Positions 14,985-59,486 of a stretch of 64,000 bases of DNA are shown in pieces. This DNA is from Candidatus Moraniibacteriota bacterium (GTDB lineage: Bacteria; Patescibacteriota; Minisyncoccia; Moranbacterales; UBA1568), in assembly GCA_963743885.1 (NCBI GenBank), contig CAVURJ010000001.1, positions 140,949 through 204,948 on the forward strand, in the 5' to 3' direction. A model generated the notes under the pieces. It had not been told where the DNA came from. It saw only the letters and a program-made list of their open reading frames with translations, and ran no database searches. Made by a program: the position numbers and the translations under genes. The first letter of the stretch is position 1. Every line of letters starts with the position of its first letter.

Positions 14985-14995
14985 ACAGGGAAAAT

Positions 14996-15023
14996 ATCTA
15001 ATACCTAATATCTAATACCTAAT
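14996..15023. repeat. Tandem 14-bp direct repeat (atctaatacctaat x2) in promoter region of DHH gene
   Basis: Perfect tandem duplication directly upstream (minus strand) of start at 14984. Confidence 0.7.
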
Positions 15024-15717: not shown

Positions 15718-18423
15718 ATGGAAAAGAAGCCGAAAATCCTGGTTTTATTGGATGGAAACGCGCTCATACATCGCGCGTATCATGCGTTGCCGCCGCTCAC
15801 GGATAAGGCGGGGCATCCGGTCAATGCGGTGTATGGGTTCGCCATGACGCTCCTCGCGGTGCTTGAGAAGTTCCATCCGGAATATATTGCGGCGTCTTTT
15901 GATCTTTCTGGCCCGACTTTCCGCGATGAGCTATACAAGGATTACAAAGCTACCCGGACGAAGGCGCCGGACGATCTATATGAGCAGATCCCGCGTGTGA
16001 AGGATGTGGTGCGCGCATTCAATATCCCAATCTATGAGAAGGAAGGGTACGAGGCGGATGATTGCGTGGGGACGATCGCACGGCAGGCAGAAAAAGAAGG
16101 TGTGCAGACGATTATCGTGACGGGGGACAATGATGCGCTTCAGTTGGTGACGCCGCTCGTCAACGTGTTTTCGATTCGCAAGGGCATCAAGGACCTCGTG
16201 CTCTATGATGAGGCGGCTGTGAGGGCGAAGTACGGCTTCAATCCGATGCAGCTCGTCGAATATAAGGGGTTGTGTGGGGATGCGTCGGACAATATCCCGG
16301 GCGTGAAGGGTATCGGCGCCAAGACAGCGACCGATCTCATCGCGGCGCACGGTACGCTCGAAGGCATCTATACGTCGCTTGAGACGCTCAAGCCAGCTGT
16401 GAAGGCCAAGCTTGAGGCGGACAAGGAGAATGCTTTCCTCTCGCGCACGCTTGGTACGATCGATACGTCGGCTCCGGTGACACTCGCGCTCACGGATGCA
16501 GTGACGCATGAGTATGACCGGGCGGCGGTCGTGGCGCTCTTTACTGAGCTTGGATTCTTCAGTTTGGTCAAAAGATTGCCGGGTGGCGAAGCCAAGAATC
16601 AAGAATCAAGAATCAAGAATCAAGAGGGGAAGAAGCCGAAAAAGACGAAAACGTTCAAGAATGCGGAAGAGCTTGAGGAGTGGCTTGAGGCGAACAAGGG
16701 GAAGGGTGTTGCGGTCTGGATCGAGAAGGGCGAGGCATCGCTCTTTGGCGGAGCTGGTATCGCAGAGGTGAGGCTTTCGATAGTGGAGGATGCGGAGGTG
16801 GTGGTTGTATGGAACAGCGAGACGAAGCCGGCTCTTAAGGGATTCTTCGAGGATGCGAAGCGCCCGAAGATTCTCTATGATTCGAAAGAAGCGATGCATC
16901 TTCTCGTGAATGAGTATATGGCGCTGGCTGGTGTGGCACGCGATGTGAAGCTCATCGCGTATCTCCTCGATGCCGGTGGTAATGTTGGTTTCGATGAACT
17001 ACTGCTCAAGGAGTTCGGTCTAGAGCATGCCGAAGCGAAGGCCGCTGCGCTCTACGCGCTCAATGCGCGGCTCGGCGAGCGGATCAAGGCAATTTCGGCG
17101 GAGCAGCCGGCGGGCCAGCCCGCAGGAGCTACGCCCACAGCGTTGCTGGCGGGAAAGTCGCTCCTTGATGTTTATGCGGATATCGAACTACCGCTCATCC
17201 CAGTGCTCTTCGAAGTAGAGGAGAATGGCATCTTTCTCAATACGGAAAAATTTAAGGTGCTGTCGGAGCAGCTCGCGGAGGAGCTCAAGACGCTCGAGCA
17301 GGATATCTATGCGTTCGCCGGTCGTGAGTTCAATATCAATTCTCCCAAGCAGCTCTCGGAGATTCTCTTTGAGGATCTTAAGATTCCGACGACGAATATC
17401 AAGAAGACGAAGACGGGTATCTCGACGGCTTCAGCTGAGCTTGCGAAGCTTGCTGAGTATCCGATCGTCGCGAAGATCGAGAGCTATCGCGAACTCTTCA
17501 AGCTGAAGACGACCTATCTTGATGCATTGCCGGCGCTCGTGGGAGCGGACGGGCGGTTGCACACGACCTTCCATCAGACGGTTGCGGCGACGGGGCGGCT
17601 CTCGTCATCTGATCCAAACTTGCAGAATATCCCCGCGAGGAACGCATGGAGCGAGCGTATCCGAGGAGCGTTCGAGGCGAAGCCTGGGTATCTCTTCGTC
17701 GGTGCGGACTATTCGCAGATCGAGCTTCGCGTCATGGCGCATCTTTCGGGAGATGAGTCGCTTGCCGAATCCTTCCGCAATGGTGAAGATGTCCATACGC
17801 GCACGGCTTCTGTGGTCTTCAAGGTGAAGCCGGAGGAGGTGACGGCCGATATGCGCCGGCAGGCCAAGGTCTTTAACTTCGGCATCATGTACGGTATGGG
17901 TAGCTTCGGCCTCGCACAGGCGGCTGGCATCAATCAGAAGACGGCAGCACAGTTTATCAAAGCATATTTCGAGAAATTCTCCGGCGTGACGCGATTTATT
18001 GAGGAGATGAAGGAAGGCGCGCGGAAGCATCACTTCGTTGAGACCGAGCTCGGACGTCGGCGCTATGTGCCGGAGATCGAGAGTGGCAATGTGCAGATAG
18101 CGCGTGCGGCCGAGCGCATGGCGATCAACATGCCGATTCAGGGATTGGCGGCTGATATCATGAAGCTCGCGATGCTCCGCGCGCAGAGAGTTGTCGATAG
18201 GTTTAATGATGCGAACCCGCCCCCGCCCGCATCCCGCTTGAAACGGGAAACGTGGCGGGCAAGGATGGTGCTCCAGGTGCATGATGAGCTCATCTTCGAA
18301 GTGAAGGCGGAGCTTGCGGAAACGTTCGCGAAGGAAGTGAAGGAAGCGATGGATGGAGCCTACCCGCTCCGCGTGCCGCTCATCGCTGCCGTCGAGATCG
18401 GGAAGAATTGGGGAGAGATCTAG
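15718..18423 (+). CDS. polA: DNA polymerase I
   Basis: N-terminus ILVLLDGNALIHRAYHA (5'-3' exo), Pol A motifs (RRQAKVFNFGIMYG, VHDELIFE); carries two in-frame repeat insertions (16594-16624 and 18216-18260). Confidence 0.9.
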   Translation: MEKKPKILVLLDGNALIHRAYHALPPLTDKAGHPVNAVYGFAMTLLAVLEKFHPEYIAASFDLSGPTFRDELYKDYKATRTKAPDDLYEQIPRVKDVVRAFNIPIYEKEGYEADDCVGTIARQAEKEGVQTIIVTGDNDALQLVTPLVNVFSIRKGIKDLVLYDEAAVRAKYGFNPMQLVEYKGLCGDASDNIPGVKGIGAKTATDLIAAHGTLEGIYTSLETLKPAVKAKLEADKENAFLSRTLGTIDTSAPVTLALTDAVTHEYDRAAVVALFTELGFFSLVKRLPGGEAKNQESRIKNQEGKKPKKTKTFKNAEELEEWLEANKGKGVAVWIEKGEASLFGGAGIAEVRLSIVEDAEVVVVWNSETKPALKGFFEDAKRPKILYDSKEAMHLLVNEYMALAGVARDVKLIAYLLDAGGNVGFDELLLKEFGLEHAEAKAAALYALNARLGERIKAISAEQPAGQPAGATPTALLAGKSLLDVYADIELPLIPVLFEVEENGIFLNTEKFKVLSEQLAEELKTLEQDIYAFAGREFNINSPKQLSEILFEDLKIPTTNIKKTKTGISTASAELAKLAEYPIVAKIESYRELFKLKTTYLDALPALVGADGRLHTTFHQTVAATGRLSSSDPNLQNIPARNAWSERIRGAFEAKPGYLFVGADYSQIELRVMAHLSGDESLAESFRNGEDVHTRTASVVFKVKPEEVTADMRRQAKVFNFGIMYGMGSFGLAQAAGINQKTAAQFIKAYFEKFSGVTRFIEEMKEGARKHHFVETELGRRRYVPEIESGNVQIARAAERMAINMPIQGLAADIMKLAMLRAQRVVDRFNDANPPPPASRLKRETWRARMVLQVHDELIFEVKAELAETFAKEVKEAMDGAYPLRVPLIAAVEIGKNWGEI
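16594..16624. repeat. (AAGAATC)4 heptanucleotide microsatellite in polA linker, encodes KNQESRIKNQE
   Basis: aagaatc x4 + aag; identical arrays at 26519 and 34554. Confidence 0.9.
18216..18260. repeat. GC-rich palindromic element copy within polA (in-frame)
   Basis: cccgcccccgcccgcatcccgcttgaaacgggaaacgtggcgggc; encodes ~NPPPPASRLKRETWRA inserted just before the VHDEL motif. Confidence 0.55.
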
Positions 18424-23122: not shown

Positions 23123-23148
23123 ATATACGGTATACGGTATACGATATA

Positions 23149-23418
23149 CTACTTTGTTGCTGCCTTCTTTACGAGGGCGTTCAAGCGGGACTTCTTGCGG
23201 GCAGCGGTGTTCTTCTTGATCACCTTCTTCTGCGCGGCCTTGTCGAGAGCCTTGATGGCCTTCTTGAGAGTCTCCTGCGCCTCGTCTACCTTGCCGGCAG
23301 CGATGGCTTCGCGAGTCTTCTTGACGGCGCTCTTCACGACACCGTTCACGACTTTGTTGCGGAGCGTGTTCTTGGCGGTGACGCGCATGTACTTCCTGGC
23401 GGCTTTCTTAATCGGCAT
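23149..23418 (-). CDS. rpsT: 30S ribosomal protein S20
   Basis: MPIKKAARKYMRVTAKNTLRNKV... Lys/Ala-rich 89 aa. Confidence 0.9.
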   Translation of the reverse strand: MPIKKAARKYMRVTAKNTLRNKVVNGVVKSAVKKTREAIAAGKVDEAQETLKKAIKALDKAAQKKVIKKNTAARKKSRLNALVKKAATK

Positions 23419-24883: not shown

Positions 24884-25453
24884 ATGATAGGAAGATTGGA
24901 AGGAAAAATCGCCGGAATCCGCGGAAATGCCGCTATCGTCATGGTTGGAGGCGTGGGCTATCTCGTGGCTGCGTCTGCCTATACGCTCGGCAAGATCGCC
25001 GGAGAGAGCGAAGTGTCACTCCATATCCATACGCATGTACGAGAGGACCAGCTGGCGCTTTATGGCTTCTTGTCCGAGGAGGAGCTTTCTATGTTTGAGC
25101 TTCTCATCTCTATCTCCGGCATTGGGCCGAAGGTCGCGCTTTCTATTCTCTCTATCGCTGATCCCAAGACTATCCGCACTGCAATCGTGAACAAGGATCC
25201 GTCCATCCTGACGCGCGTGTCGGGGGTCGGCAAGAAGACGGCCGAGCGCGTCATCGTGGAGCTTCAGAACAAGGTGGATGCGATCGGCATCGAAGACCAG
25301 GGGACAGCACTGGCTGGCCAGGACGCTATCGAAGCGCTGGTCTCGCTCGGCTACTCTGTCACAGAGTCCCGCGAAGCGCTCAAGCAGGTGCCGGCCGATA
25401 TCACGGATGTCAGCACGCGTATCCGCCAGGCTTTGAAAAATCTGGGGAAGTAG
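24884..25453 (+). CDS. ruvA: Holliday junction DNA helicase RuvA
   Basis: MIGRLEGKIAGIRGNAAIVMVGGVGYLV ... HhH motifs GIGPKVAL / GVGKKTAERV. Confidence 0.9.
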   Translation: MIGRLEGKIAGIRGNAAIVMVGGVGYLVAASAYTLGKIAGESEVSLHIHTHVREDQLALYGFLSEEELSMFELLISISGIGPKVALSILSIADPKTIRTAIVNKDPSILTRVSGVGKKTAERVIVELQNKVDAIGIEDQGTALAGQDAIEALVSLGYSVTESREALKQVPADITDVSTRIRQALKNLGK

Positions 25454-25461
25454 GGCTGATA

Positions 25462-25486
25462 TTTCAGCTAAATAGCATAAAATATG
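25462..25486 (+). terminator. Rho-independent terminator after ruvA
   Basis: ggctc-tgat-gagcc + tattttt. Confidence 0.55.
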
Positions 25487-25633
25487 GCTCTGATGAGCCT
25501 ATTTTTGTTTATCACTCTCGACAGAATCGATAAAAAGTGCTATAATGGAACGTTACTGGGACTGTCGAAAGATTGTTTTGGAACCGCCATCTTCCCGGGC
25601 GCAATGGGAATGTACTTTGAGAAGGAGCGAACC

Positions 25634-26194
25634 ATGGCTAACGCCGTGAATCTGCCGGGCGATCGTCTGGCGGGCATGATGATGGATCTTTGCGCGAAGT
25701 TGCGTGCGGAAAACCTCACGCTTGACCAATTCGATCTCTTTTTGCAGCACAAGAATCCGTTCGAAAAGATGGGCGATGATATGTTCATCCGTCATGTCAC
25801 TGTGAGTCGTACCCGGACCCCGATGGAAGCGATTGATGCGACTGGTCGGAACAAGTATCTCACCAATGATGCCATCAAGACGATGCCGCGAGGTGAGGGC
25901 GACGAAGCATACGTGATCTTTTTTAAGCTCGGCCGCGAGGTGAGCGACGCCGATCTGGACAAGGAATACGAACTGCGCGACCTCAAGCCTGCCGACCCGT
26001 ATACGCTTGCTGCTGTCAACGAAGCCGACCCCGCCTTTGCTGACGAGCATCCCAATGGTACCCACTGGCAGGATGTGCATGGCAACTGGTGCTATGCGGC
26101 CTTCGGTCGGTGGCGCGACGAGCGTCACGTGGGCGTCTACCGGATCGACGACGGCTGGGGTGACCACTGGTGGTTCGCTGGCCTGCGCAAGTAG
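25634..26194 (+). CDS. Hypothetical protein
   Basis: 187-aa ORF with SD gagaaggagcg; promoter-like tcgaca-17-tataat at ~25521-25550. Confidence 0.45.
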   Translation: MANAVNLPGDRLAGMMMDLCAKLRAENLTLDQFDLFLQHKNPFEKMGDDMFIRHVTVSRTRTPMEAIDATGRNKYLTNDAIKTMPRGEGDEAYVIFFKLGREVSDADLDKEYELRDLKPADPYTLAAVNEADPAFADEHPNGTHWQDVHGNWCYAAFGRWRDERHVGVYRIDDGWGDHWWFAGLRK

Positions 26195-26257
26195 TCCTCT
26201 GGACTTCGGATTCTGCTCTGACCTTTGAGCTTGGTCCTTAGTCCTTTGACCCCGCAT

Positions 26258-26296
26258 TTTACCAACATGGTAGTGCGGGGTTTCATTTTTTCAATT
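26258..26296 (+). terminator. Rho-independent terminator
   Basis: ccccgca-(17-nt loop)-tgcgggg followed by tttcatttttt. Confidence 0.5.
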
Positions 26297-26361
26297 TCTT
26301 GCTTTTTTATATATCGCATCTTGGATTGCCTCAGTATGCGAATGACTATACACTAGGAAAT

Positions 26362-27375
26362 ATGAATACAAGCGAATTCCTCCAATCAGAAGCCTGGGCG
26401 AAGCTGCAGGTCGCGGCTGGACATGAAGCGGTGCGTATCGGGGACGATGCGTATGGTTTTGTGCATGTGTTGCCGCTGGTTGGGCGTTACCTCTATACGC
26501 CGAGATGGCCGGCAGATGGAATCAAGAATCAAGAATCAAGAATCAAGAATCTACTTGCGGAAGCGGAGAAAGTCGGAGCGAAATGGATACGGATTGAGCC
26601 GGAGACGGAGGGGATGAAAGAGATACTTCTCCGCCAGCTGGCGGATCAGAATGGTACTGTTTCGGTAGAAAAATCTCCACATGACATGCAGCCGCGGGAG
26701 ACTTTTGTCATTGATATCGCGAAGAGCGAGGATGAGTTGCTCGCAGCAATGAAGCCGAAGACTCGCTACAATATCCGACTGGCAGAGAAGAAGGGTGTTC
26801 GGGTCTTCGCGACACAGGAAAAGAAATATCAAGAAGCCTTTCTTGATCTCATTACCGCGACCGCTGAGCGCAAGGACATCGTGCCGCATCCAAGGAGCTA
26901 TTATGAGAAATTCTTTACCGAGCTACCGGAGGAGATGTGTCACCTCTTCGTCGCGGAATATGAGGGTGTCGTCGTTGCGGCCAATCTCGTGATGATCTAT
27001 GGTGATACGGCGACGTACCTTCATGGCGGGTCAGGCGACCGGTATCGCGAGGCGATGGCGCCGTTCCTCCTCCAGTGGGAGCAGATCAAGTTCGCGAAAA
27101 GCAAGGGTTGTGCGAAGTACGACTTCGGAGGAGTGAGGACAGTCAACAGTCAACAGTCAACAGTCAACGGAGAAACTACAAACTACAAACTACAAACTAC
27201 AAGCTCGTGGGGAGGAATCACGAGATTCAAAACGGGATTTTCGCCGAAGACCGAGCCGACCGTCTTTCCTGGATGCTATGATATCGTACTCGACAAGAAA
27301 GCGTACTGTCTCTATGGGAAGCTGCGGCTGATCCAGGGTGTTCTCGTGCGGATAAGGAGGCTTTTCGGTCTGTAG
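26362..27375 (+). CDS. FemAB-family peptidoglycan aminoacyltransferase, with three in-frame heptamer arrays
   Basis: FemAB-like architecture (FVAEYEGVVVAANLVMIYGDTATYLHGG); arrays at 26519-26551, 27141-27168, 27174-27201. Confidence 0.65.
   Translation: MNTSEFLQSEAWAKLQVAAGHEAVRIGDDAYGFVHVLPLVGRYLYTPRWPADGIKNQESRIKNLLAEAEKVGAKWIRIEPETEGMKEILLRQLADQNGTVSVEKSPHDMQPRETFVIDIAKSEDELLAAMKPKTRYNIRLAEKKGVRVFATQEKKYQEAFLDLITATAERKDIVPHPRSYYEKFFTELPEEMCHLFVAEYEGVVVAANLVMIYGDTATYLHGGSGDRYREAMAPFLLQWEQIKFAKSKGCAKYDFGGVRTVNSQQSTVNGETTNYKLQTTSSWGGITRFKTGFSPKTEPTVFPGCYDIVLDKKAYCLYGKLRLIQGVLVRIRRLFGL
26519..26551. repeat. (AAGAATC)4 heptanucleotide microsatellite in femAB, encodes IKNQESRIKN
   Basis: gaatcaagaatcaagaatcaagaatcaagaatc. 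Confidence 0.9.
27141..27201. repeat. Adjacent (AGTCAAC)4 and (AACTACA)4 heptanucleotide arrays in femAB
   Basis: agtcaac x4 (27141-27168), ggagaa spacer, aactaca x4 (27174-27201); encode TVNSQQSTVNGETTNYKLQTT. Confidence 0.9.
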
Positions 27376-27619
27376 AAGAAACTCAATCGAAAACGAGACT
27401 TTACACGGCCTCTTTTTGTATGTTTTTATCCGCGGTGCTTTACGGGAAGACAGAAGAGTACTATACTCAGCTGTTCGTTAAAAACTGAAGAGTTTTTGCA
27501 ACAGAGAGCATCGGTTGTTGTGCGCGGCAGATTTTGTAGCTAATGACCGGATAAGGGAGGGGAACCACAGCATGACGCCCCTTTCATTCAGGGGGGGGCA
27601 TCATTTTGAGGAGAATAAC

Positions 27620-28243
27620 ATGATAAATATCCATGATTTCCCCGAAGAGCTTGTGTGTCAATTCATAGAAGCGCTTGAGAAGATCGGGCGCGGGCCGAAA
27701 GATCTTGAGAATCTTGTTCATAATGAACGGCTGTTGCGAAGCGCTTTCACGAAAGGAGATGATGAGTCGGGTATAATCGCAACGGATTTTTTTCCGGAAT
27801 TCGATCCGGTCGAGTGTATGGGCAAGGGCTGGAAACATGGTCATCATTCAGCATTATGCAACGGCATATGGGAGGAGCGCCGTCGCGGACATCCGTTCGG
27901 GCATTCCTGCGTAGATATCTCCGCCATCCTTCTGGAGCATGCGCTGTCAGATGATGAATCAGAAATATCTGGTATAGAAATGAAGCGGCGTCTCAAAGGA
28001 AGCGGGCGTGTCTGTCTCGGGGCGAAGGTATGCATGATTTTTTGGAAGTTCAGGATCCTCATTCCACAGAGTTGGAAAAAGAACGGGTGGGTCATTTATT
28101 TCGATGGCTCGTACGTTATCGATCCGCTTGGTCATCCATACACACTGTATCTGTGGTGCGTGTGCAATAAGTGGCGTTTGGGGTGGCGTTCAGTGTTCGA
28201 TAATCGGGGAAGGGATCATCGTTCCGCCGTGCTTAAGATCTAA
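27620..28243 (+). CDS. Hypothetical Cys/His-rich protein (low-GC islet); alternative start 27572 would place a G8 tract inside the CDS
   Basis: 208 aa from ATG 27620 (SD gaggag); upstream ATG 27572 also has SD gggagg; G8 at 27591-27598. Confidence 0.45.
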   Translation: MINIHDFPEELVCQFIEALEKIGRGPKDLENLVHNERLLRSAFTKGDDESGIIATDFFPEFDPVECMGKGWKHGHHSALCNGIWEERRRGHPFGHSCVDISAILLEHALSDDESEISGIEMKRRLKGSGRVCLGAKVCMIFWKFRILIPQSWKKNGWVIYFDGSYVIDPLGHPYTLYLWCVCNKWRLGWRSVFDNRGRDHRSAVLKI

Positions 28244-28343
28244 TCTCTGAATCGAAGCGCCTTTTCGCATATTCCGTGTCTTGGTATCCGCCTCGGCACG
28301 GGATTTTCTTTTTTTAAGAAATATCTATACACTAGGAAGTACT

Positions 28344-29600
28344 ATGAAACGATTCATTTCGCGGCTTCTGCCGCAGCAGGCCAAGAATTGGTATCATTTC
28401 GCGCAGGCGGTCGTCGCATGCGTCTTCTTCGGCTTTCCTGGGAAGAAGCTTCGGGTGATCGGTGTGACTGGGACGAACGGTAAGACGACCACGACGCAGA
28501 TGATCGCGCGCATTCTCGACAAGGCCGGGAAAAAAATAGCGATGGCCTCGACAATCAATTTTCAGATTGGAGAGAGGAAGTGGACCAATGCCTCGAAGTT
28601 CACGACACTCTCGCCGTGGAAGCTGCAGAAGTTTCTTTCCGAGGCGGTGGCGGCTGGTTGCGAATATGCGATCGTCGAGACATCGTCGCATGCACTCGAT
28701 CAGGGCCGGGTATGGGGTATTCCGTACGCGATTGCTGTCATGACCAATGTGACGCGCGAGCATCTCGACTATCACAAAACGATGGAAGGATATCGTGCGG
28801 CCAAGCGGAAGCTTTTCGAGATGGCGGACAAAGCGGTCATCAATGCTGATATGGAGGAGCCGGAGTACTTCCGTATCCCTGGAAGAGAGTCTATCGCGTA
28901 TAGTGTAAAGGACGTGAGCGCACATCTCTTTGCCCAGCATGTCGAGCTCGATTTCAAGGGGACGGAGTTTGCAGTCGATGGGACAGAGTTCCGTTTGCAT
29001 CTTCCGGGACTTTTCAATATCGAGAATGCGCTCGCAGCACTCGGTGTCGCTCGGCTGCTCCAGATTGATTTCTCGGTCGCTCGGGAAGCGCTTGAGAGCA
29101 TCGCGGGTGTGTCGGGGCGCATGGAGCTTGTGCCGAACGCGGTCGAGGCGGATATCTTGATTGACTACGCGGTGACGCCAGACGCTTTCGAGAAGCTCTA
29201 TGCCTCTATCATTCCGCTCAAGATCCCGGGTTCGAAGATCATCCATGTTTTCGGTGTGTGTGGCGAGCGCGATCGGGGCAAGCGGCCGATGCTCGGCGAG
29301 ATCGCTTCGTCCAATGCGGATATCATCATCCTGACGAACGAGGACCCGTACTATGAGGATCCGGAACAGATCATTGATGATATAGAAAAAGGAGTGACGA
29401 AGAAAAAGGATAAGGACTATTTCCGTGTCTTCGACCGGCGCGAAGCGATCCGGAAGGCGCTTTCGATCATGGAGATCGGCGACATCGTGCTCATCACTGG
29501 CAAGGGCGCGGAGGAGACGATGGCGCTCGGTGGCAAGCGCATCCCGTGGAATGAACGCAGGGTGGTTGAGGAAGAACTCTCACAGTTATCAAGTTTGTAA
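28344..29600 (+). CDS. murE: Mur ligase family enzyme, MurE-like (UDP-MurNAc-tripeptide synthetase)
   Basis: GVTGTNGKTTTTQMIARIL P-loop, Mur ligase middle/C domains. Confidence 0.75.
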   Translation: MKRFISRLLPQQAKNWYHFAQAVVACVFFGFPGKKLRVIGVTGTNGKTTTTQMIARILDKAGKKIAMASTINFQIGERKWTNASKFTTLSPWKLQKFLSEAVAAGCEYAIVETSSHALDQGRVWGIPYAIAVMTNVTREHLDYHKTMEGYRAAKRKLFEMADKAVINADMEEPEYFRIPGRESIAYSVKDVSAHLFAQHVELDFKGTEFAVDGTEFRLHLPGLFNIENALAALGVARLLQIDFSVAREALESIAGVSGRMELVPNAVEADILIDYAVTPDAFEKLYASIIPLKIPGSKIIHVFGVCGERDRGKRPMLGEIASSNADIIILTNEDPYYEDPEQIIDDIEKGVTKKKDKDYFRVFDRREAIRKALSIMEIGDIVLITGKGAEETMALGGKRIPWNERRVVEEELSQLSSL

Positions 29601-34262: not shown

Positions 34263-34775
34263 ATGGCATCTCCATATCAAGATTTCGTCGCGAAGGCTCG
34301 GGAGCGTTTCGAGGCCAAGCGGCAGGCGAAAGCACAGAGTACTGGCCAGTATCGTTTCACGCTGCATGCGCAGTTCAAGATGCAGCAGTACGGGTTGTCG
34401 GATCAGAAGGTGCGGAGTGTCATCCGCAATCCGCGTCGCCGCGAGGAAGGCATTGTGAAAGACACGGTCGCGGTGATGCAGCCGGTTTCGGTGAAGCGGG
34501 GTGCTGATGGCAAGGATACCTGGAAGCAGGAAATCTGGGTGATGTTCGTTTTGAAGAATCAAGAATCAAGAATCAAGAATCAAGAACAAAAGAAGAAAAA
34601 GGCTGGAAGCGACCAATCGGAGTCTCATGATTCTCAATTCTCAATTCTTAATTCTGCGGGCCGACAGGTCCGCATTATAAGTGCCTGGCGGTATCCGGGA
34701 ATCAGCCCGAAAAGGAACCCTATACCAGAGGATATTCTTTTGGAGCTTGAGAGAGAAGATGTTCTGGAGGGCTGA
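34263..34775 (+). CDS. Hypothetical protein (DUF4258-like N-terminus) containing an (AAGAATC)4 array
   Basis: YRFTLHAQFKMQQYGLSDQKVRSVIRNP; array at 34554-34587 encodes KNQESRIKNQEQ. Confidence 0.45.
   Translation: MASPYQDFVAKARERFEAKRQAKAQSTGQYRFTLHAQFKMQQYGLSDQKVRSVIRNPRRREEGIVKDTVAVMQPVSVKRGADGKDTWKQEIWVMFVLKNQESRIKNQEQKKKKAGSDQSESHDSQFSILNSAGRQVRIISAWRYPGISPKRNPIPEDILLELEREDVLEG
34554..34587. repeat. (AAGAATC)4 heptanucleotide microsatellite, third copy
   Basis: aagaatc x4 + aagaac; inverted degenerate (GATTCTY)4 at 34629-34656. Confidence 0.9.
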
Positions 34776-36189: not shown

Positions 36190-36376
36190 CATCACGACTC
36201 GTCGAACGATCGGTCGGTTTCAAAGAAGATAACTCTTCTGCGAGACCGGCCGCTTTTCTTTTTCCGAAACTTCTTTTGCGGTATACTTGTATGTGTCATC
36301 CTGAGCTCGTTGGGGGATGACAAAAAAAGTTGTATCTTTTCTATACCCTATTCCCTAAACCCTAATCCCTACAAAA

Positions 36377-37807
36377 ATGAAGCAGACAAAAATCGTCGCG
36401 ACTATCGGGCCGGCATCGGAATCGAAGGAGATGCTCAGGAAGCTCGTCGAGGCCGGCATGAACGTCGTGCGGCTCAATTTTTCCCATGGCGAGCATGCGT
36501 GGCACAAGGAAGTGATCAACCGCGTGCGCGAATTGTCGCATGAGATGGGCTTGCCGATTGGTATCTTGGCCGACCTCCAGGGTCCGCGTATCCGTACCGA
36601 GGTGAAGGAAGCGTTCGACGTGAAGAAGGGCGATAAGATACGCGTGAGCGATATCTTTGAGAAGGACCGGTTGCCGTCTGATGAGAGCTTGCCGACGATT
36701 CTTCTCGATATGTCCGGCATCTCCCGCGGCCTCGAGCCGGGGCACGCTATCCTTATCGAGGACGGCCTCATCGAGCTCACGACCGTGGAGCGCAAGGAGA
36801 ACTATGTCATCGCCGAGGCCAAGAACGACGGCACGATCAAGGGCCGCAAGGGTGTGATCCTGCCGGACTCCAAGCTTGATCTGGCTATCCTTTCGGAGAA
36901 GGACCGCAAGGATCTACGCTTCGTGCTTGAGGAGGGTGTCGACTTTGTCGGCCTCTCGTTCGTTGGTTCCGTGGATGATATCAAGGATGCCCGGGCGGAG
37001 ATGCGTTCGGTGCTCGGCGAGGATGCTCGGCTGCCGCAGATCGTCTCAAAGATTGAGCGCAAGGAAGCAATCAAGAACCTTGAGTCCCTCGTGAAGGAAA
37101 GCGATGCTGTGATGGTGGCGCGCGGCGATCTCGGTATCGAGATGCCGGAGAGCGAAGTGGCCATCCTGCAGAAGCGCATCATCGCGGAGAGTCTGCGCTC
37201 GGCCAAGCCGGTGATCGTGGCGACGCAGATGATGAAGAGTATGATGGATAATCCGCGCCCGACCCGCGCCGAGGTTAGCGATGTCTCGAATGCGGTCATC
37301 GACCATGCCGATGCCGTGATGCTCTCAGAAGAGTCTGCGATGGGCAAGTATCCGGTGGAGACGGTCGCTATGATGGCGGAGATTATCGGCAAGACGGAAG
37401 AGTCCCCATTCGATGACCTCTACAAGGCGCTCGACCTCAATTTCAGCAATGACTACGCCACGATGATCCGGAGCGTCTACGAGCTCGCGCAGAGCTTCGG
37501 TACCAAGGCGATCCTCCTCCTCTCGATGAGCGGGCTGACCGCACGGCTCATCTCGCATTTCCGTCCGGAGAGCAAGATCCTCGTCGCGACCAATAGTCGG
37601 GAGACCTGGAACGGGCTCGCGCTCGTCTGGGGCGTCGTGCCGTACCTCTATGAGGATGACAAAAATCTCGAGGGTTTCATCGGTCGGATGATCGATGATG
37701 CCAAGAAGGGTGGTCGGCTCGCTGCGGGGGAGAAAGCGGTTGTCTTCCATGGCCGCACTCCGGACCATGATACCTTGAAGCTTGTCGGAATCCGGGAAAT
37801 CAGGTAG
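36377..37807 (+). CDS. pyk: Pyruvate kinase
   Basis: MKQTKIVATIGPASESKEMLRKLVEAGMNVVRLNFSHG. Confidence 0.92.
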   Translation: MKQTKIVATIGPASESKEMLRKLVEAGMNVVRLNFSHGEHAWHKEVINRVRELSHEMGLPIGILADLQGPRIRTEVKEAFDVKKGDKIRVSDIFEKDRLPSDESLPTILLDMSGISRGLEPGHAILIEDGLIELTTVERKENYVIAEAKNDGTIKGRKGVILPDSKLDLAILSEKDRKDLRFVLEEGVDFVGLSFVGSVDDIKDARAEMRSVLGEDARLPQIVSKIERKEAIKNLESLVKESDAVMVARGDLGIEMPESEVAILQKRIIAESLRSAKPVIVATQMMKSMMDNPRPTRAEVSDVSNAVIDHADAVMLSEESAMGKYPVETVAMMAEIIGKTEESPFDDLYKALDLNFSNDYATMIRSVYELAQSFGTKAILLLSMSGLTARLISHFRPESKILVATNSRETWNGLALVWGVVPYLYEDDKNLEGFIGRMIDDAKKGGRLAAGEKAVVFHGRTPDHDTLKLVGIREIR

Positions 37808-38048
37808 AATCATTTCTCAGTGAACAGCTAGCAGTTAACGGGGATAAGGAATTTCCTGATTCGTTTCTTGTTGATTGCTGATTGTTGACTGATAAAGGAA
37901 AGGTGGCCCCAGCCCAAGGCTGGTCCGCCTCGGGCGGAGAGTCCCGCCAGGGGCGGGCAGGGGTTTAAGGCAAGCGTAGGGAGAAACTTTACCTGTCGGC
38001 GGCAGGCCTACCGAGGAGATGTAAAAACAATTGATTTCTGGTCAGAGC

Positions 38049-50942: not shown

Positions 50943-51066
50943 TTTCCAATGATCAATTCGCAATTTACATTGAATTTCCAATGAGACAATGATCAATTTT
51001 TGAAAATCACAACATTGGAATTTGAAAATTGATTGAAAATTGGAAATTGAAAATTTCTTAAAATAT
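50943..51066. repeat. AT-rich direct-repeat region (ttccaatga / caatttt / tgaaaat units) between pilB and pilC
   Basis: tttccaatgatcaattcgcaatttacattgaatttccaatgagacaatgatcaatttttgaaaatc...gaaaattgattgaaaattggaaattgaaaatttc. Confidence 0.55.
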
Positions 51067-57692: not shown

Positions 57693-58663
57693 CGATGTAC
57701 GGAAGAACTACAAAAGCAGAGCTCTGGAAAAAAAGAGGGATGTATTCTCTCTTTTTCATCCTGCTCGTATCTGTGATTTTCTTTTTCATGCACGATAATC
57801 AGACAGTATGGGATACTGATGTGGTGAAGCAGGCGGTCATCGTCGATGACGGGTCGGCGTACCGAGTCTCTTTTTCCGGGACACCGAACATCAGTGATCT
57901 GCTCGCGTCTTCTGGTGTGCCAGCGGGCGAGCATGATGATGTGTTCCCGGCTCGGGATGCGAGGGCTTTGCCGGGCATGGTGGTGTCTGTAAAGCGCGCG
58001 AAGCCGCTCTTGGCATCCGTCGACGGTGGGACGAAGGAGTGGGAGACGCTTTTTGGTACTGTGGAAGAGGCACTGGCCGATGCCGGGATCGCGCTCGATG
58101 AGGACGATATCGTGAAGCCTGGCCGAGACGAAGCGGTGCATGACGGCATGAATATCACGATCATCCGGGTCGAGGTGCGCGAGGAATCCGTCGAGAAAGC
58201 GGTTGCCTTCGACAAGAAGGCGAATGAGGATGACAAGCTCTCCTGGAGGAAGACGGTAGTGACACAGAAAGGGGAGAAAGGCGTTGATCGTCTCACGTAT
58301 AGGGTGAGTTCACATGACGGCAAGGAGGTGGCGCGCAAACTTATCAAAACGGAGCGGATTAAGGAGCCGGTGACGGAGATCACGACCCAGGGGACGTATG
58401 TGAAGACAGGTAAGAGTCACACAGGCGCGGCTTCGTGGTATGCTTGGACTGGGACGATGGCCGCCGCCAACCCATGGCTTCCTATGGGGAGCTATGTGCG
58501 GGTGACCAACGTCGATAACGGCAAGTCGGTCATCGTGAAGATCAATGATCGTGGGCCATTCGTACCGGGACGCATCATCGACCTCGACAAGGTGGCTTTC
58601 CAGAAGATCGCTTCTATCGGCGCTGGTGTCATCAATGTGAAGATGGAAGAGATAGTCAATTAA
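57689..58663 (+). CDS. G5 + RlpA-like double-psi beta-barrel (3D/YabE-like) cell-wall protein
   Basis: TM anchor; C-terminal GAASWYAW...MAAANPWLPMGSYVRVTNVDNGKSVIVKINDRGPF. Confidence 0.55.
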   Translation: MTMYGRTTKAELWKKRGMYSLFFILLVSVIFFFMHDNQTVWDTDVVKQAVIVDDGSAYRVSFSGTPNISDLLASSGVPAGEHDDVFPARDARALPGMVVSVKRAKPLLASVDGGTKEWETLFGTVEEALADAGIALDEDDIVKPGRDEAVHDGMNITIIRVEVREESVEKAVAFDKKANEDDKLSWRKTVVTQKGEKGVDRLTYRVSSHDGKEVARKLIKTERIKEPVTEITTQGTYVKTGKSHTGAASWYAWTGTMAAANPWLPMGSYVRVTNVDNGKSVIVKINDRGPFVPGRIIDLDKVAFQKIASIGAGVINVKMEEIVN

Positions 58664-58679
58664 CAGTGAACAGCGAACA

Positions 58680-59486
58680 ATGAACATGGAACAAATGCCA
58701 GTACGGGCGAAGAAATCATTAGGGCAGAATTTTCTCAACGATGCCGAAGTCATCGAGCAGATCTTCGAGGCGGCCGGGCTCGTGAAGACTGACCACGTGC
58801 TTGAGATCGGCCCCGGGACGGGCGCGATGACCTTTCGCCTTTCTGATCGGGTAGAGAAGTTGGTCGCGATCGAGCTCGACCATCAGCTGGTGGAGCGTTT
58901 GCAGCAGCACTTCATCGATTCGAAGAGCGTCTCTATTCTCGAGGGAAATATTCTCGACGTGCATCTCGAAGAACTGCTCCATAGTGTCGGCTTTGCTGAC
59001 CATCCATACAAGATCGTCGCCAATATCCCGTACTACATCACGGCGCCGATCATCCGGACGCTCCTTTCGCTCGAGCATCAGCCACTCTCGATGACGCTCA
59101 TGGTTCAGAATGAAGTCGCTGACCGGCTCTCGGCCAAGCCGGGGGATATGAGCCTGCTCTCGATGATGGCGCAGTACTATGCTGAGGTCGAGAAGAAATT
59201 CGTCGTTCCGAAGGAAGCATTCGATCCGATACCGAAAGTGGATAGCGCTATCGTGCATATCACTCCAAGGCGGCCATATGATCCCGAAGAGGATCGCAAG
59301 GTGTTCAGATTGGCGCGGGCCGGCTTCGCAGCGCGGCGCAAGACCTTGGCCAATAATCTCGCCACGAGCCTTTCTGTGCCGCGCGAGGAGATCGAGCGCG
59401 GGCTTGAGTCAGTGGGACTACGGAAGGATATCCGCGCTCAAGCGCTTTCAGTGGCTGATTGGGAGGCTCTAAGGAAGATATGGTAA
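58680..59486 (+). CDS. rsmA: 16S rRNA (adenine1518/1519-N6)-dimethyltransferase RsmA/KsgA
   Basis: KSLGQNFLND...VLEIGPGTGAMT...IVANIPYYIT. Confidence 0.9.
   Translation: MNMEQMPVRAKKSLGQNFLNDAEVIEQIFEAAGLVKTDHVLEIGPGTGAMTFRLSDRVEKLVAIELDHQLVERLQQHFIDSKSVSILEGNILDVHLEELLHSVGFADHPYKIVANIPYYITAPIIRTLLSLEHQPLSMTLMVQNEVADRLSAKPGDMSLLSMMAQYYAEVEKKFVVPKEAFDPIPKVDSAIVHITPRRPYDPEEDRKVFRLARAGFAARRKTLANNLATSLSVPREEIERGLESVGLRKDIRAQALSVADWEALRKIW

Follow-up and report, generated by a model that had tools for sequence, protein, structure and literature searches.

In-frame heptanucleotide repeat arrays in the loops of a FemX-type transferase gene from a Moranbacteria genome and its relatives

Introduction

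A stretch of 64,000 nucleotides (nt) from the genome of a Candidatus Moraniibacteriota bacterium (contig CAVURJ010000001.1, positions 140,949 to 204,948, referred to as the window) carries femAB, a predicted cell-wall gene that is interrupted by tandem arrays of seven-nucleotide units without loss of its reading frame. This raises the question of how arrays with a period that is no multiple of three arise and persist in a coding sequence, and why several are found in one gene. The original prediction for this locus, made from the letters of the window, considered femAB to be either a hotspot of a repeat-generating process or under diversifying selection.

Dispersed families of heptamer repeats have been known since 1990. 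Among long simple sequence repeats (SSRs) with units of 5–11 nt, heptanucleotide repeats are the most abundant class in many prokaryotes, for which slippage with a DNA-polymerase footprint was put forward as the reason (Mrazek, Guo & Shah 2007, in the summaries given by PMC4679880 and PMC4692102); the reason for this dominance has been a standing question since 2007. A literature search on heptamer arrays in the Candidate Phyla Radiation (CPR)/Patescibacteria found no paper describing them.

The window was compared with 80 related femAB loci (1.25 Mb, one genome per species), labelled nearly without exception as Moranbacteria, Parcubacteria or Patescibacteria. Individual related loci are given L-numbers, of which L086–L165 are metagenome contigs, and protein clusters are given P-numbers.

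Results

Three perfect heptanucleotide arrays in femAB

An exhaustive scan of the window for perfect runs of at least three units revealed five period-7 runs of 21 nt or longer, and none of periods 5, 6 or 8–15. Since no such period-7 run appeared in 200 second-order Markov simulations of the window, the arrays in femAB are real and far beyond chance. Three of them are located in this gene (Table 1). Two adjacent fourfold arrays had been predicted with the units AGTCAAC and AACTACA, which are rotations of ACAGTCA and AAACTAC, and both were recovered by Tandem Repeats Finder (TRF) with a 100% match. Together with the first array they span 684 bp of a single uninterrupted open reading frame (ORF 26299/26362..27375, plus strand), all in frame, in agreement with the predicted distance of about 700 bp, and the low-complexity peptide given at the time is present in the translation (GGVRTVNSQQSTVNGETTNYKLQTTSSWGG). 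The two adjacent arrays have the layout GGAGTGAGG (ACAGTCA)x4 AC GGAG (AAACTAC)x4 AA GCTCGTGG.

The unit of array 1, written as AAGAATC, is present at three loci of the window, in PolA, femAB and a small protein of 170 residues, with unrelated flanking sequences. The PolA array encodes KNQESRIKNQE at residue 300, between the 5'-3' exonuclease and the exo-like domains. Positions 25000–29000 of the window showed no match to an RNA family in Rfam at E≤1.

Table 1. Position of femAB, its repeat arrays and the other perfect or imperfect arrays discussed with them in the window.
Feature	Position	Strand	Description	Basis
femAB	26362-27375	+	predicted FemX-type (FemAB family) aminoacyl-tRNA-dependent peptidoglycan branch transferase, intact, 337 residues	Pfam, fold
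Array 1 (site 1)	26519-26551	+	GAATCAA x4.7, 33 nt, perfect	TRF and perfect-run scan
Array 2 (site 2)	27139-27168	+	ACAGTCA x4.3, 30 nt, perfect	TRF, 100% match
Spacer between arrays 2 and 3	27169-27172	+	GGAG, 4 nt	sequence read
Array 3 (site 2, second half)	27173-27202	+	AAACTAC x4.3, 30 nt, perfect	TRF, 100% match
Codons of the putative catalytic pair	27226-27231	+	TTC AAA, F289-K290, in helix 284-291	counterparts of FemX_Wv Phe304-Lys305
PolA array	16593-16625	+	AAGAATC x4.7, 33 nt, perfect; in frame, DNA polymerase I linker	
Array in small protein	34554-34586	+	AAGAATC x4.7, 33 nt, perfect; in frame, 170-residue protein with a weak DUF4258 match	
Imperfect array in small protein	34630-34655	+	ATTCTCA x3.7; same 170-residue ORF as the preceding array	TRF

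The host gene is predicted to encode an intact FemX-type enzyme

The femAB product scored 123 bits for Pfam family PF02388, where the cutoff is 24 (E=1.4e-35), and PF13480 was matched as well. Its homologues numbered more than 6000, and among the named ones the closest were FemA/FemB-family proteins of Candidatus Moraniibacteriota. The exact protein is recorded from a single contig of 652,564 bp and its nearest homologue is 70% identical. An AlphaFold2 model based on 119 homologues had a predicted local distance difference test score (pLDDT) of 92.1 and a predicted template modelling score (pTM) of 0.88. The best Foldseek matches were the FemX proteins of Weissella viridescens (FemX_Wv) and Staphylococcus aureus, with template modelling (TM) scores of 0.70–0.71 and E-values of 1e-20 to 1e-22. 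This is the Fem fold with two GNAT-like subdomains, without the coiled-coil arm of the staphylococcal Fem proteins.

The residues F289-K290 were invariant in the alignment of the 119 homologues, and the ITRFK motif that contains them aligns to WAFK of S. aureus FemX. In FemX_Wv, the chemical step involves Lys305, and C75 of the tRNA is touched by Phe304 (PMC9723616). Judged from the model, the femAB product is an intact enzyme and its gene no pseudogene. The conserved neighbourhood ruvA-femAB-Mur ligase fits the predicted role in the cell wall. The enzyme had been described as surface-exposed, which is inaccurate since it is at the cytoplasmic face of the membrane that Fem ligases act (PMC8280954).

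The arrays are located in native loops

Alignment to the FemX structures placed both inserts in native loops of the model, outside the catalytic core. Array 1 encodes residues G53-L64 (IKNQESRIKN), forming the end of loop 50–56 and the opening turns of helix 57–70 in the model. Site 1 follows the conserved LYxPRxP strand and aligns with the loop VMDVTDVD of FemX_Wv, ahead of the helix starting with LLDRL.

Arrays 2 and 3 together encode T260-S281 (residues 260–280 are TVNSQQSTVNGETTNYKLQTT), with T260-N269 (TVNSQQSTVN) from array 2 and approximately E271-S281 (TTNYKLQTT) from array 3. Site 2 is situated between strand 252–257 (YDFGG) and helix 284–291, and F289-K290 lies eight residues downstream of the insert. 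Its counterparts are the acidic loop ESESTDD in FemX_Wv and TDNDPDKDSEHY in S. aureus FemX. Residues 261–280 are the sole low-confidence stretch of the model, with mean pLDDT values of 54 for 261–270 and 48 for the next block of ten (below 50 at 271–278), and the site-2 insert is therefore predicted to be disordered. According to the model, sites 1 and 2 are native surface loops of variable length, of which site 2 is close to the active site in sequence.

Period-7 arrays are a general feature of the related genomes

Perfect runs of at least three units in the 80 relatives were dominated by period 7, with 48 arrays. Period 4 was found 22 times (short runs), period 6 five times and period 5 once; periods 8–15 were nearly absent. 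When mismatches were allowed, 63 period-7 arrays were counted against one of period 5, five of period 6 and none of periods 8–11.

With the window included, 51 of the 53 perfect arrays lie within open frames of at least 450 nt and every one of these is sense-oriented. The sense-strand unit is free of stop codons in all three frames, with the exception of one 21-nt run (L055). When reverse-complemented, the unit has a stop in 30 of the 51 arrays, including all three femAB units. About five of the 63 arrays are intergenic, compared with approximately 13% of non-coding DNA. All coding arrays are on the strand of femAB. As 85.6% of the coding sequence of these loci is on this strand as well, and stops occur in most of the units when they are reverse-complemented, no separate effect of replication or transcription is claimed.

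The length of the period-7 runs is quantised. Their numbers decay geometrically to a trough at 22–29 nt and rise to a peak at 30–33 nt, a tail that is absent for periods 5, 6, 8 and 9. An intact array consists of four units and a partial unit of 2–5 nt. The arrays of 30–33 nt have sharp borders, with 0–3 of 7 flanking bases matching the unit, and the shorter period-7 runs are mostly visibly decayed four-copy arrays. In long ORFs no array exceeds about 34–35 nt. A scan of metagenomes with the pattern (AAGAATC)3 gave the same ceiling: none of 32 arrays in long ORFs was longer than 34 nt, against 16 of 51 elsewhere that reach 36–104 nt. Near-identical femAB alleles differ by steps of seven residues (21 nt), with proteins of 318 and 325 residues in one case and of 317, 324 and 331 residues in another. 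Two further length variants within clusters were rejected as array variants: 329 versus 336 residues is a C-terminal difference, and 328 versus 346 residues reflects the N-terminal start. Only six close genome pairs (at least 85% identity) were available, and their insertions and deletions showed no clear excess of 7 or 21 nt.

On the sense strand, the units are rich in A (48%), followed by T (26%), C (19.5%) and G (7%). The tetranucleotide TCAA occurs in 27 of 63 units, where 9.5 are expected, and about 40% of the units belong to an AnTmC(C) family. In an AT-rich cyclic heptamer, each step from T-run to A-run gives TAA, TAG or TGA if no C stands between them; by the genetic code, AnTmC units would thus be the least complex AT-rich heptamers with all three frames readable, and on one strand only. 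The filter against stops would account for the bias in orientation and, in part, for the repeated use of the same units. The AAATTTC unit of some relatives fits the slippery-site pattern X XXY YYZ; the units of the window do not, and this reading was dropped.

In the metagenome contigs L086–L165, (AAGAATC)n was found at G+C contents from 27 to 71%, with in-frame copies in ORFs at 64–71%. These AAGAATC-bearing contigs contain 43 other perfect heptamer arrays in 492 kb, with units matched in G+C content, so the process seems to be general and not bound to a single sequence, and heptamer-rich genomes widespread. Metagenome heptamer arrays are often adjacent compound arrays with units one base apart.

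femAB is a hotspot, among others

Across the window and the 80 loci, 23 of the 63 arrays are located in femAB, which makes up 6.15% of the DNA. This is an 8.8-fold enrichment (binomial p=1e-12, or 1e-10 without the window), with 0.28 arrays per kb in femAB against 0.032 per kb elsewhere. At a lower detection threshold, period-7 structure was present at site 1 in 19 of 81 orthologues and at site 2 in 15. Periods 4–12 other than 7 were absent from site 2 in these 81 orthologues, and a single weak period-6 case was seen at site 1. A third array site of femAB follows EKRGV.V in L036, L046 and L074.

The suspected hotspot is thus genuine, yet not unique. Fpg/MutM has a recurrent array site directly after GHLLVK in five genomes. 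Further recurrent orthologous sites are the inter-domain linker of PolA, the adjacent Mur ligase, a protein of about 490 residues and the DUF4258-like protein of 170 residues. In the PolA linker, relics of the KNQESRI heptad were observed in L072, L033, L039 and L022. Orthologues of the 170-residue protein in L037, L041, L042 and L061 carry arrays of different units at this site, and the density of arrays per kb in this protein is, by a rough estimate, about equal to that of femAB.

The array sites are old and femAB appears to be mosaic

The units at site 1 of different genomes are linked by single-base steps, such as ATCAAGA (the window), ATCAAGT and ATCAAAT, or ATTTCAA, ATTTCCA, ATATCCA and ATTTTCA. 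Decayed relics in relatives at 53–70% identity encode peptides of the TVNSQQ type at site 2 and of the KNQESRI type at site 1. AAACTAC at site 2 was found in this genome only, out of 81 orthologues. Arrays 1 and 2 are perfect at old sites, which implies that they were re-homogenised recently. Decayed KNQESRI-type relics were also seen at the PolA, femAB and 170-residue-protein sites of relatives.

Within the 90%-identity clusters of P0057, P0105 and P0036 (L016, L081, L082, L083), two alternative forms of the site-2 loop exist. On near-identical backgrounds, an array-less loop VHTGSTSSSW stands against IQSHSEIKNQKSKINSW in two clusters, and a TVNSQQ-type loop against one of the KNQESRI type. 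The alternative to the array-less loop in the dimorphic clusters carries an AAAAATC array. The loop cassette of L083 is 97% identical to that of L016, and the next 60 nt are 70% identical. The same loop cassette is found in lineages with an overall identity of only 81–83%. From these sequence comparisons femAB appears to be a mosaic gene, in which whole loop cassettes recombine between lineages. Such swapping of cassettes is compatible with either selection or relaxed constraint. In pneumococci, the alleles of murM are mosaic as well.

Insertions of another type, GC-rich hairpins (CCCGCC...GGCGGG), were observed in femAB. In L081, a 21-nt hairpin (positions 1707-1727) is inserted in frame inside a heptamer array. 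A 45-nt in-frame GC hairpin insert, GPASTREDSASTRGG, is located at 10598-10642 of L002, where the staphylococcal Fem proteins bear their coiled-coil. Non-sister femAB homologues share other low-complexity inserts, RQAQGD and QNPSSILPLERGG. By analogy with the palindromic elements of Rickettsia, these hairpin and low-complexity inserts may be another, second type of selfish or palindromic element inserted in frame.

One otherwise intact femAB, that of L009, has an in-frame TAG around position 1700 (KLIE*TAKRK), away from any array, where the other members of its cluster, P0048, have Ala. Possible causes are recoding, a nonsense mutation of recent date or an error in sequencing.

Other features of the window

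The ORFs on either side of femAB, 25484-26194 (236 residues) and 27620-28243 (207 residues, rich in Cys and His), matched no Pfam family, and homologues of them were absent from the 80 loci. A compact ruvA-femAB-Mur ligase arrangement is present in three related contigs (L081, L083 and L084), for which reason both ORFs look like lineage-specific insertions.

A 13-mer, TATACACTAGGAA, occurs at 26347-26359 and 28326-28338, 2–5 nt upstream of the ATG codons of femAB and the Mur ligase, with no further matches in the window at up to two mismatches (0.34 expected). This may be a shared ribosome binding site or promoter-proximal motif.

An intergenic, imperfect period-7 array (CTATACC CTATTCC CTAAACC CTAATCC CTA) at 36341-36371 ends 5 nt ahead of the ATG at 36377, a placement that recalls the TAACTGA repeats just upstream of starts in Beggiatoaceae. 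More period-7 or period-14 arrays, mostly imperfect, are located at 14993-15023 (between divergent ORFs), 23124-23149 (TATACGG x3.7, directly after a terminator-like hairpin), 37868-37888, 51014-51055 (ATTGAAA-like, near an ORF start) and 58657-58694.

Discussion

Relation to known repeat systems

The heptamer of the cyanobacterial STRR3 family, which we take to be CAACAGT, would be a rotation of the ACAGTCA unit of array 2. Like the STRR repeats of Calothrix and Nostoc, the TAACTGA repeats of Beggiatoaceae, cyanobacteria and Bacteroidetes (PMC4679880) and the GGGNATC repeats of Xanthomonas and Nostoc (PMC4692102), the arrays described here are short, scattered and built from few preferred heptamers. 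In these families, too, stop codons bar one orientation from ORFs. The few intragenic copies of TAACTGA sit in variable surface regions (PMC4679880), and GGGNATC arrays favour four units (PMC4692102), as the Moranbacteria arrays do. The known families differ in being mostly intergenic, often just upstream of starts, and in having one or a few fixed units, for which regulatory, G-quadruplex or binding-site roles were proposed. The Moranbacteria arrays have many units, lie in coding sequence, lack G-tracts and allow a reading-frame account of their four copies.

The arrays share with the heptanucleotide long SSRs, as far as these are summarised in the two papers cited for them above, their head-to-tail 7-nt units, the over-representation of period 7 against neighbouring periods and a genome-wide, lineage-specific occurrence. 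Long SSRs are described there as mainly intergenic and typical of large genomes, with non-triplet units rare in genes, in contrast to the arrays studied here, of which about 90% are in ORFs and which are sense-oriented and quantised at four copies, in a CPR genome of approximately 0.65 Mb and its relatives. The kind of repeat is thus already known; its details, coding and quantised, are unusual.

Similarity was also seen with the genic repeats of Borgs (PMC9879509), which are perfect and A-biased, flanked by a partial repeat, fast-evolving and sometimes several per ORF, and which encode disordered low-complexity segments without disrupting the ORF. The Borg units are divisible by three and their arrays at least 50 nt long (PMC9879509), whereas the arrays considered here have a 7-nt unit, keep the frame through three added units, do not exceed 34 nt and reside in cytoplasmic housekeeping proteins. 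Contingency loci, such as the 7-bp repeats of Haemophilus influenzae hmw and the tetranucleotides of lipopolysaccharide genes, are likewise gene-associated non-triplet SSRs, some in cell-envelope pathways. They have about 10–30 copies, against about four here, where no out-of-frame alleles were found and the copy number is fixed in frame. Finally, mosaic murM and the coiled-coil arm of FemA and S. aureus FemX illustrate that Fem ligases accept large surface insertions and that such genes can be mosaic, as femAB is here; the insertions in the present case are repeat-coded loops of 7–23 residues and not structured domains.

Slippage filtered by frame and stop codons as the probable origin

The arrays are specific for period 7, quantised in length, sense-oriented and placed in loops, and their sites are old. 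They are probably in-frame heptanucleotide microsatellites, a coding form of the long SSR, born by slippage that is filtered by reading frame and stop codons, and kept in permissive loops. From their properties we infer the slippage mechanism itself, birth by addition of three units to one, and near-neutrality.

Replication misalignment at an AT-rich 7-nt unit next to a partial repeat of 2–5 nt would add copies. Within an ORF only gains of 3n units would persist and, because 7 is not divisible by 3, the smallest gain that keeps the frame is three units, that is 21 nt or seven codons. One ancestral unit with 2–5 nt of microhomology would in this way become four units and a partial unit. To survive, a unit would also have to be stop-free in each of the three frames of the sense strand. 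These two filters would explain the modal size, the sense orientation, the A-rich, G-poor, TCAA-containing units and the genic ceiling of about 34 nt. The product would be a low-complexity loop extension of 7–11 residues, retained only where the fold tolerates it; in the FemX of the window such permissive places would be the loop after the PRxP strand and the loop between YDFGG and the Phe-Lys helix. Further slippage would re-homogenise a standing array, yielding a perfect array at an old site, and homologous recombination would carry the array between lineages as a loop cassette. Re-homogenisation, cassette transfer and the presence of three permissive loops would together make femAB a hotspot.

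A number of observations weigh against this account. A jump from one to four copies in one step is not expected from simple slippage, and intermediates of two and three copies would frameshift genes such as polA, so that multiple slips ("stuttering") or tolerated intermediates are needed. No empty site with a single unit and a partial repeat and no two- or three-copy intermediates were found, for which reason the step from one to four is only something we infer. Near-identical alleles differ by replacement of the loop and not by plain expansion. The same unit, AAGAATC, is present at three loci of the window, and in the clade as a whole at least four sites, femAB site 2 included, bear KNQESRI relics. 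Pairs of arrays with the same unit make up 7 of 62 (11%) within genomes against 2.3% between genomes (permutation p=0.004). Such recurrence is not what a purely local origin of each array would predict, although the small number of AT-rich stop-free units and the G+C content may account for a part of it. Nor does slippage account for why period 7 is preferred or why intergenic arrays are scarce.

Alternative explanations

The first alternative is adaptive: diversifying or balancing selection would act on both loops, with the arrays as raw material for changes in aminoacyl-tRNA or precursor preference, or for escape from an inhibitor. The enrichment of arrays in femAB would suit this idea, as would the three separate clusters with alternative site-2 loops on near-identical FemAB backgrounds and the array cassette that is 97% identical across two lineages with flanks of about 70%. 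The position of the loop, eight residues ahead of the counterpart of Phe304/Lys305 and near the CCA end of the tRNA, would suit it as well. The enzyme is cytoplasmic, however, and so not exposed to the pressures that commonly diversify surface loops, and similar arrays in linkers and loops of PolA, Fpg, the Mur ligase and other proteins point to a general process combined with tolerance. For the insert, disorder is predicted, and the mosaicism extends over the whole gene instead of the loop alone. What was observed is mosaic recombination that swaps loop cassettes; diversifying selection, as originally suggested, is regarded as unlikely.

Secondly, ready-made blocks of 21–33 nt could be inserted by template switching, by ectopic gene conversion or by an enzyme or RNA with a preferred heptamer, giving dispersed families like STRR and TAACTGA. 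The three 33-nt AAGAATC arrays in unrelated genes of the window, the excess of unit sharing within genomes and the KNQESRI-type arrays at both femAB sites, in the PolA linker and in the small protein of different lineages are in line with such a process. So are the occurrence of (AAGAATC)n over contigs of 27–71% G+C, in frame even at 64–71%, and the replacement rather than expansion of loops, and the GC hairpin of 21 nt inside an array illustrates that other small in-frame insertions happen. No donor, template or associated enzyme was identified, though, and the single-base steps between units of one orthologous site are what evolution in situ predicts. Recurrence is partly expected, as the AnTmC type (about 40% of the arrays) comprises few AT-rich heptamers that pass the stop filter, and the abundance of other G+C-matched heptamers in the AAGAATC contigs argues for a general period-7 process. 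Templated insertion is considered rather improbable.

A bolder variant would be that Moranbacteria and other heptamer-rich lineages possess a dedicated or sequence-preferring process that writes in-frame blocks of 21 nt (3 x 7) into loops and linkers, by "stuttering" of a replisome or primase footprint or by templated copying, after which the cassettes are traded by recombination. This, too, appears a rather doubtful proposition.

Thirdly, slippage by one unit could switch FemX, and also PolA, Fpg and others, off and on, as in a contingency locus. A non-triplet SSR within an ORF does shift the frame by a change of one unit, site 1 comes early in the gene, close to the 5' end at codon 53, perfect arrays are kept at old sites, and 7-bp repeats drive the phase variation of HMW adhesins in H. 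influenzae. Moreover, Fem ligases of the MurM/MurN type are dispensable in some bacteria (PMC8280954). Against this, no frameshifted femAB was found at consensus level in the 80 species-level loci, all of which gave a single frame in tblastn. Four apparently truncated members of 239 residues are due to start-codon calls at M80, with an intact frame upstream, and among the full-length members listed, clusters of 12 and 55 are uniform in length. With 4.3–4.7 copies the arrays are far below known switches, their copy number is quantised at the in-frame value, and their hosts include core housekeeping genes. A role as contingency locus is decidedly improbable.

An assembly or sequencing artefact, which the record of the exact protein from one contig only might suggest, is very unlikely indeed, since the arrays of 30–33 nt are below any read length, the frame of a conserved gene is kept and equivalent arrays were found in the same loops of dozens of independent metagenome-assembled genomes from different projects and assemblers.

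Significance

With filtered slippage as the preferred explanation, the near-confinement of these arrays to conserved genes is what makes the frame and stop filter visible, in a copy number of four, in the use of one strand and in the small number of units. A visible filter allows the raw mutational process to be told apart from selection. The arrays also point to a route by which the streamlined proteomes of CPR bacteria gain disordered loops, one of them beside the predicted active site of an enzyme of peptidoglycan cross-bridges. Should the arrays be no more than by-products that are tolerated, they form a tidy, ordinary example, with a useful caution for annotation: low-complexity inserts in CPR proteins need not signal pseudogenes. 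If a dedicated block-writing process were true, it would be a mechanism of evolvability in tiny genomes, remodelling time and again the tRNA-proximal loop of FemX and the linkers of PolA and Fpg.

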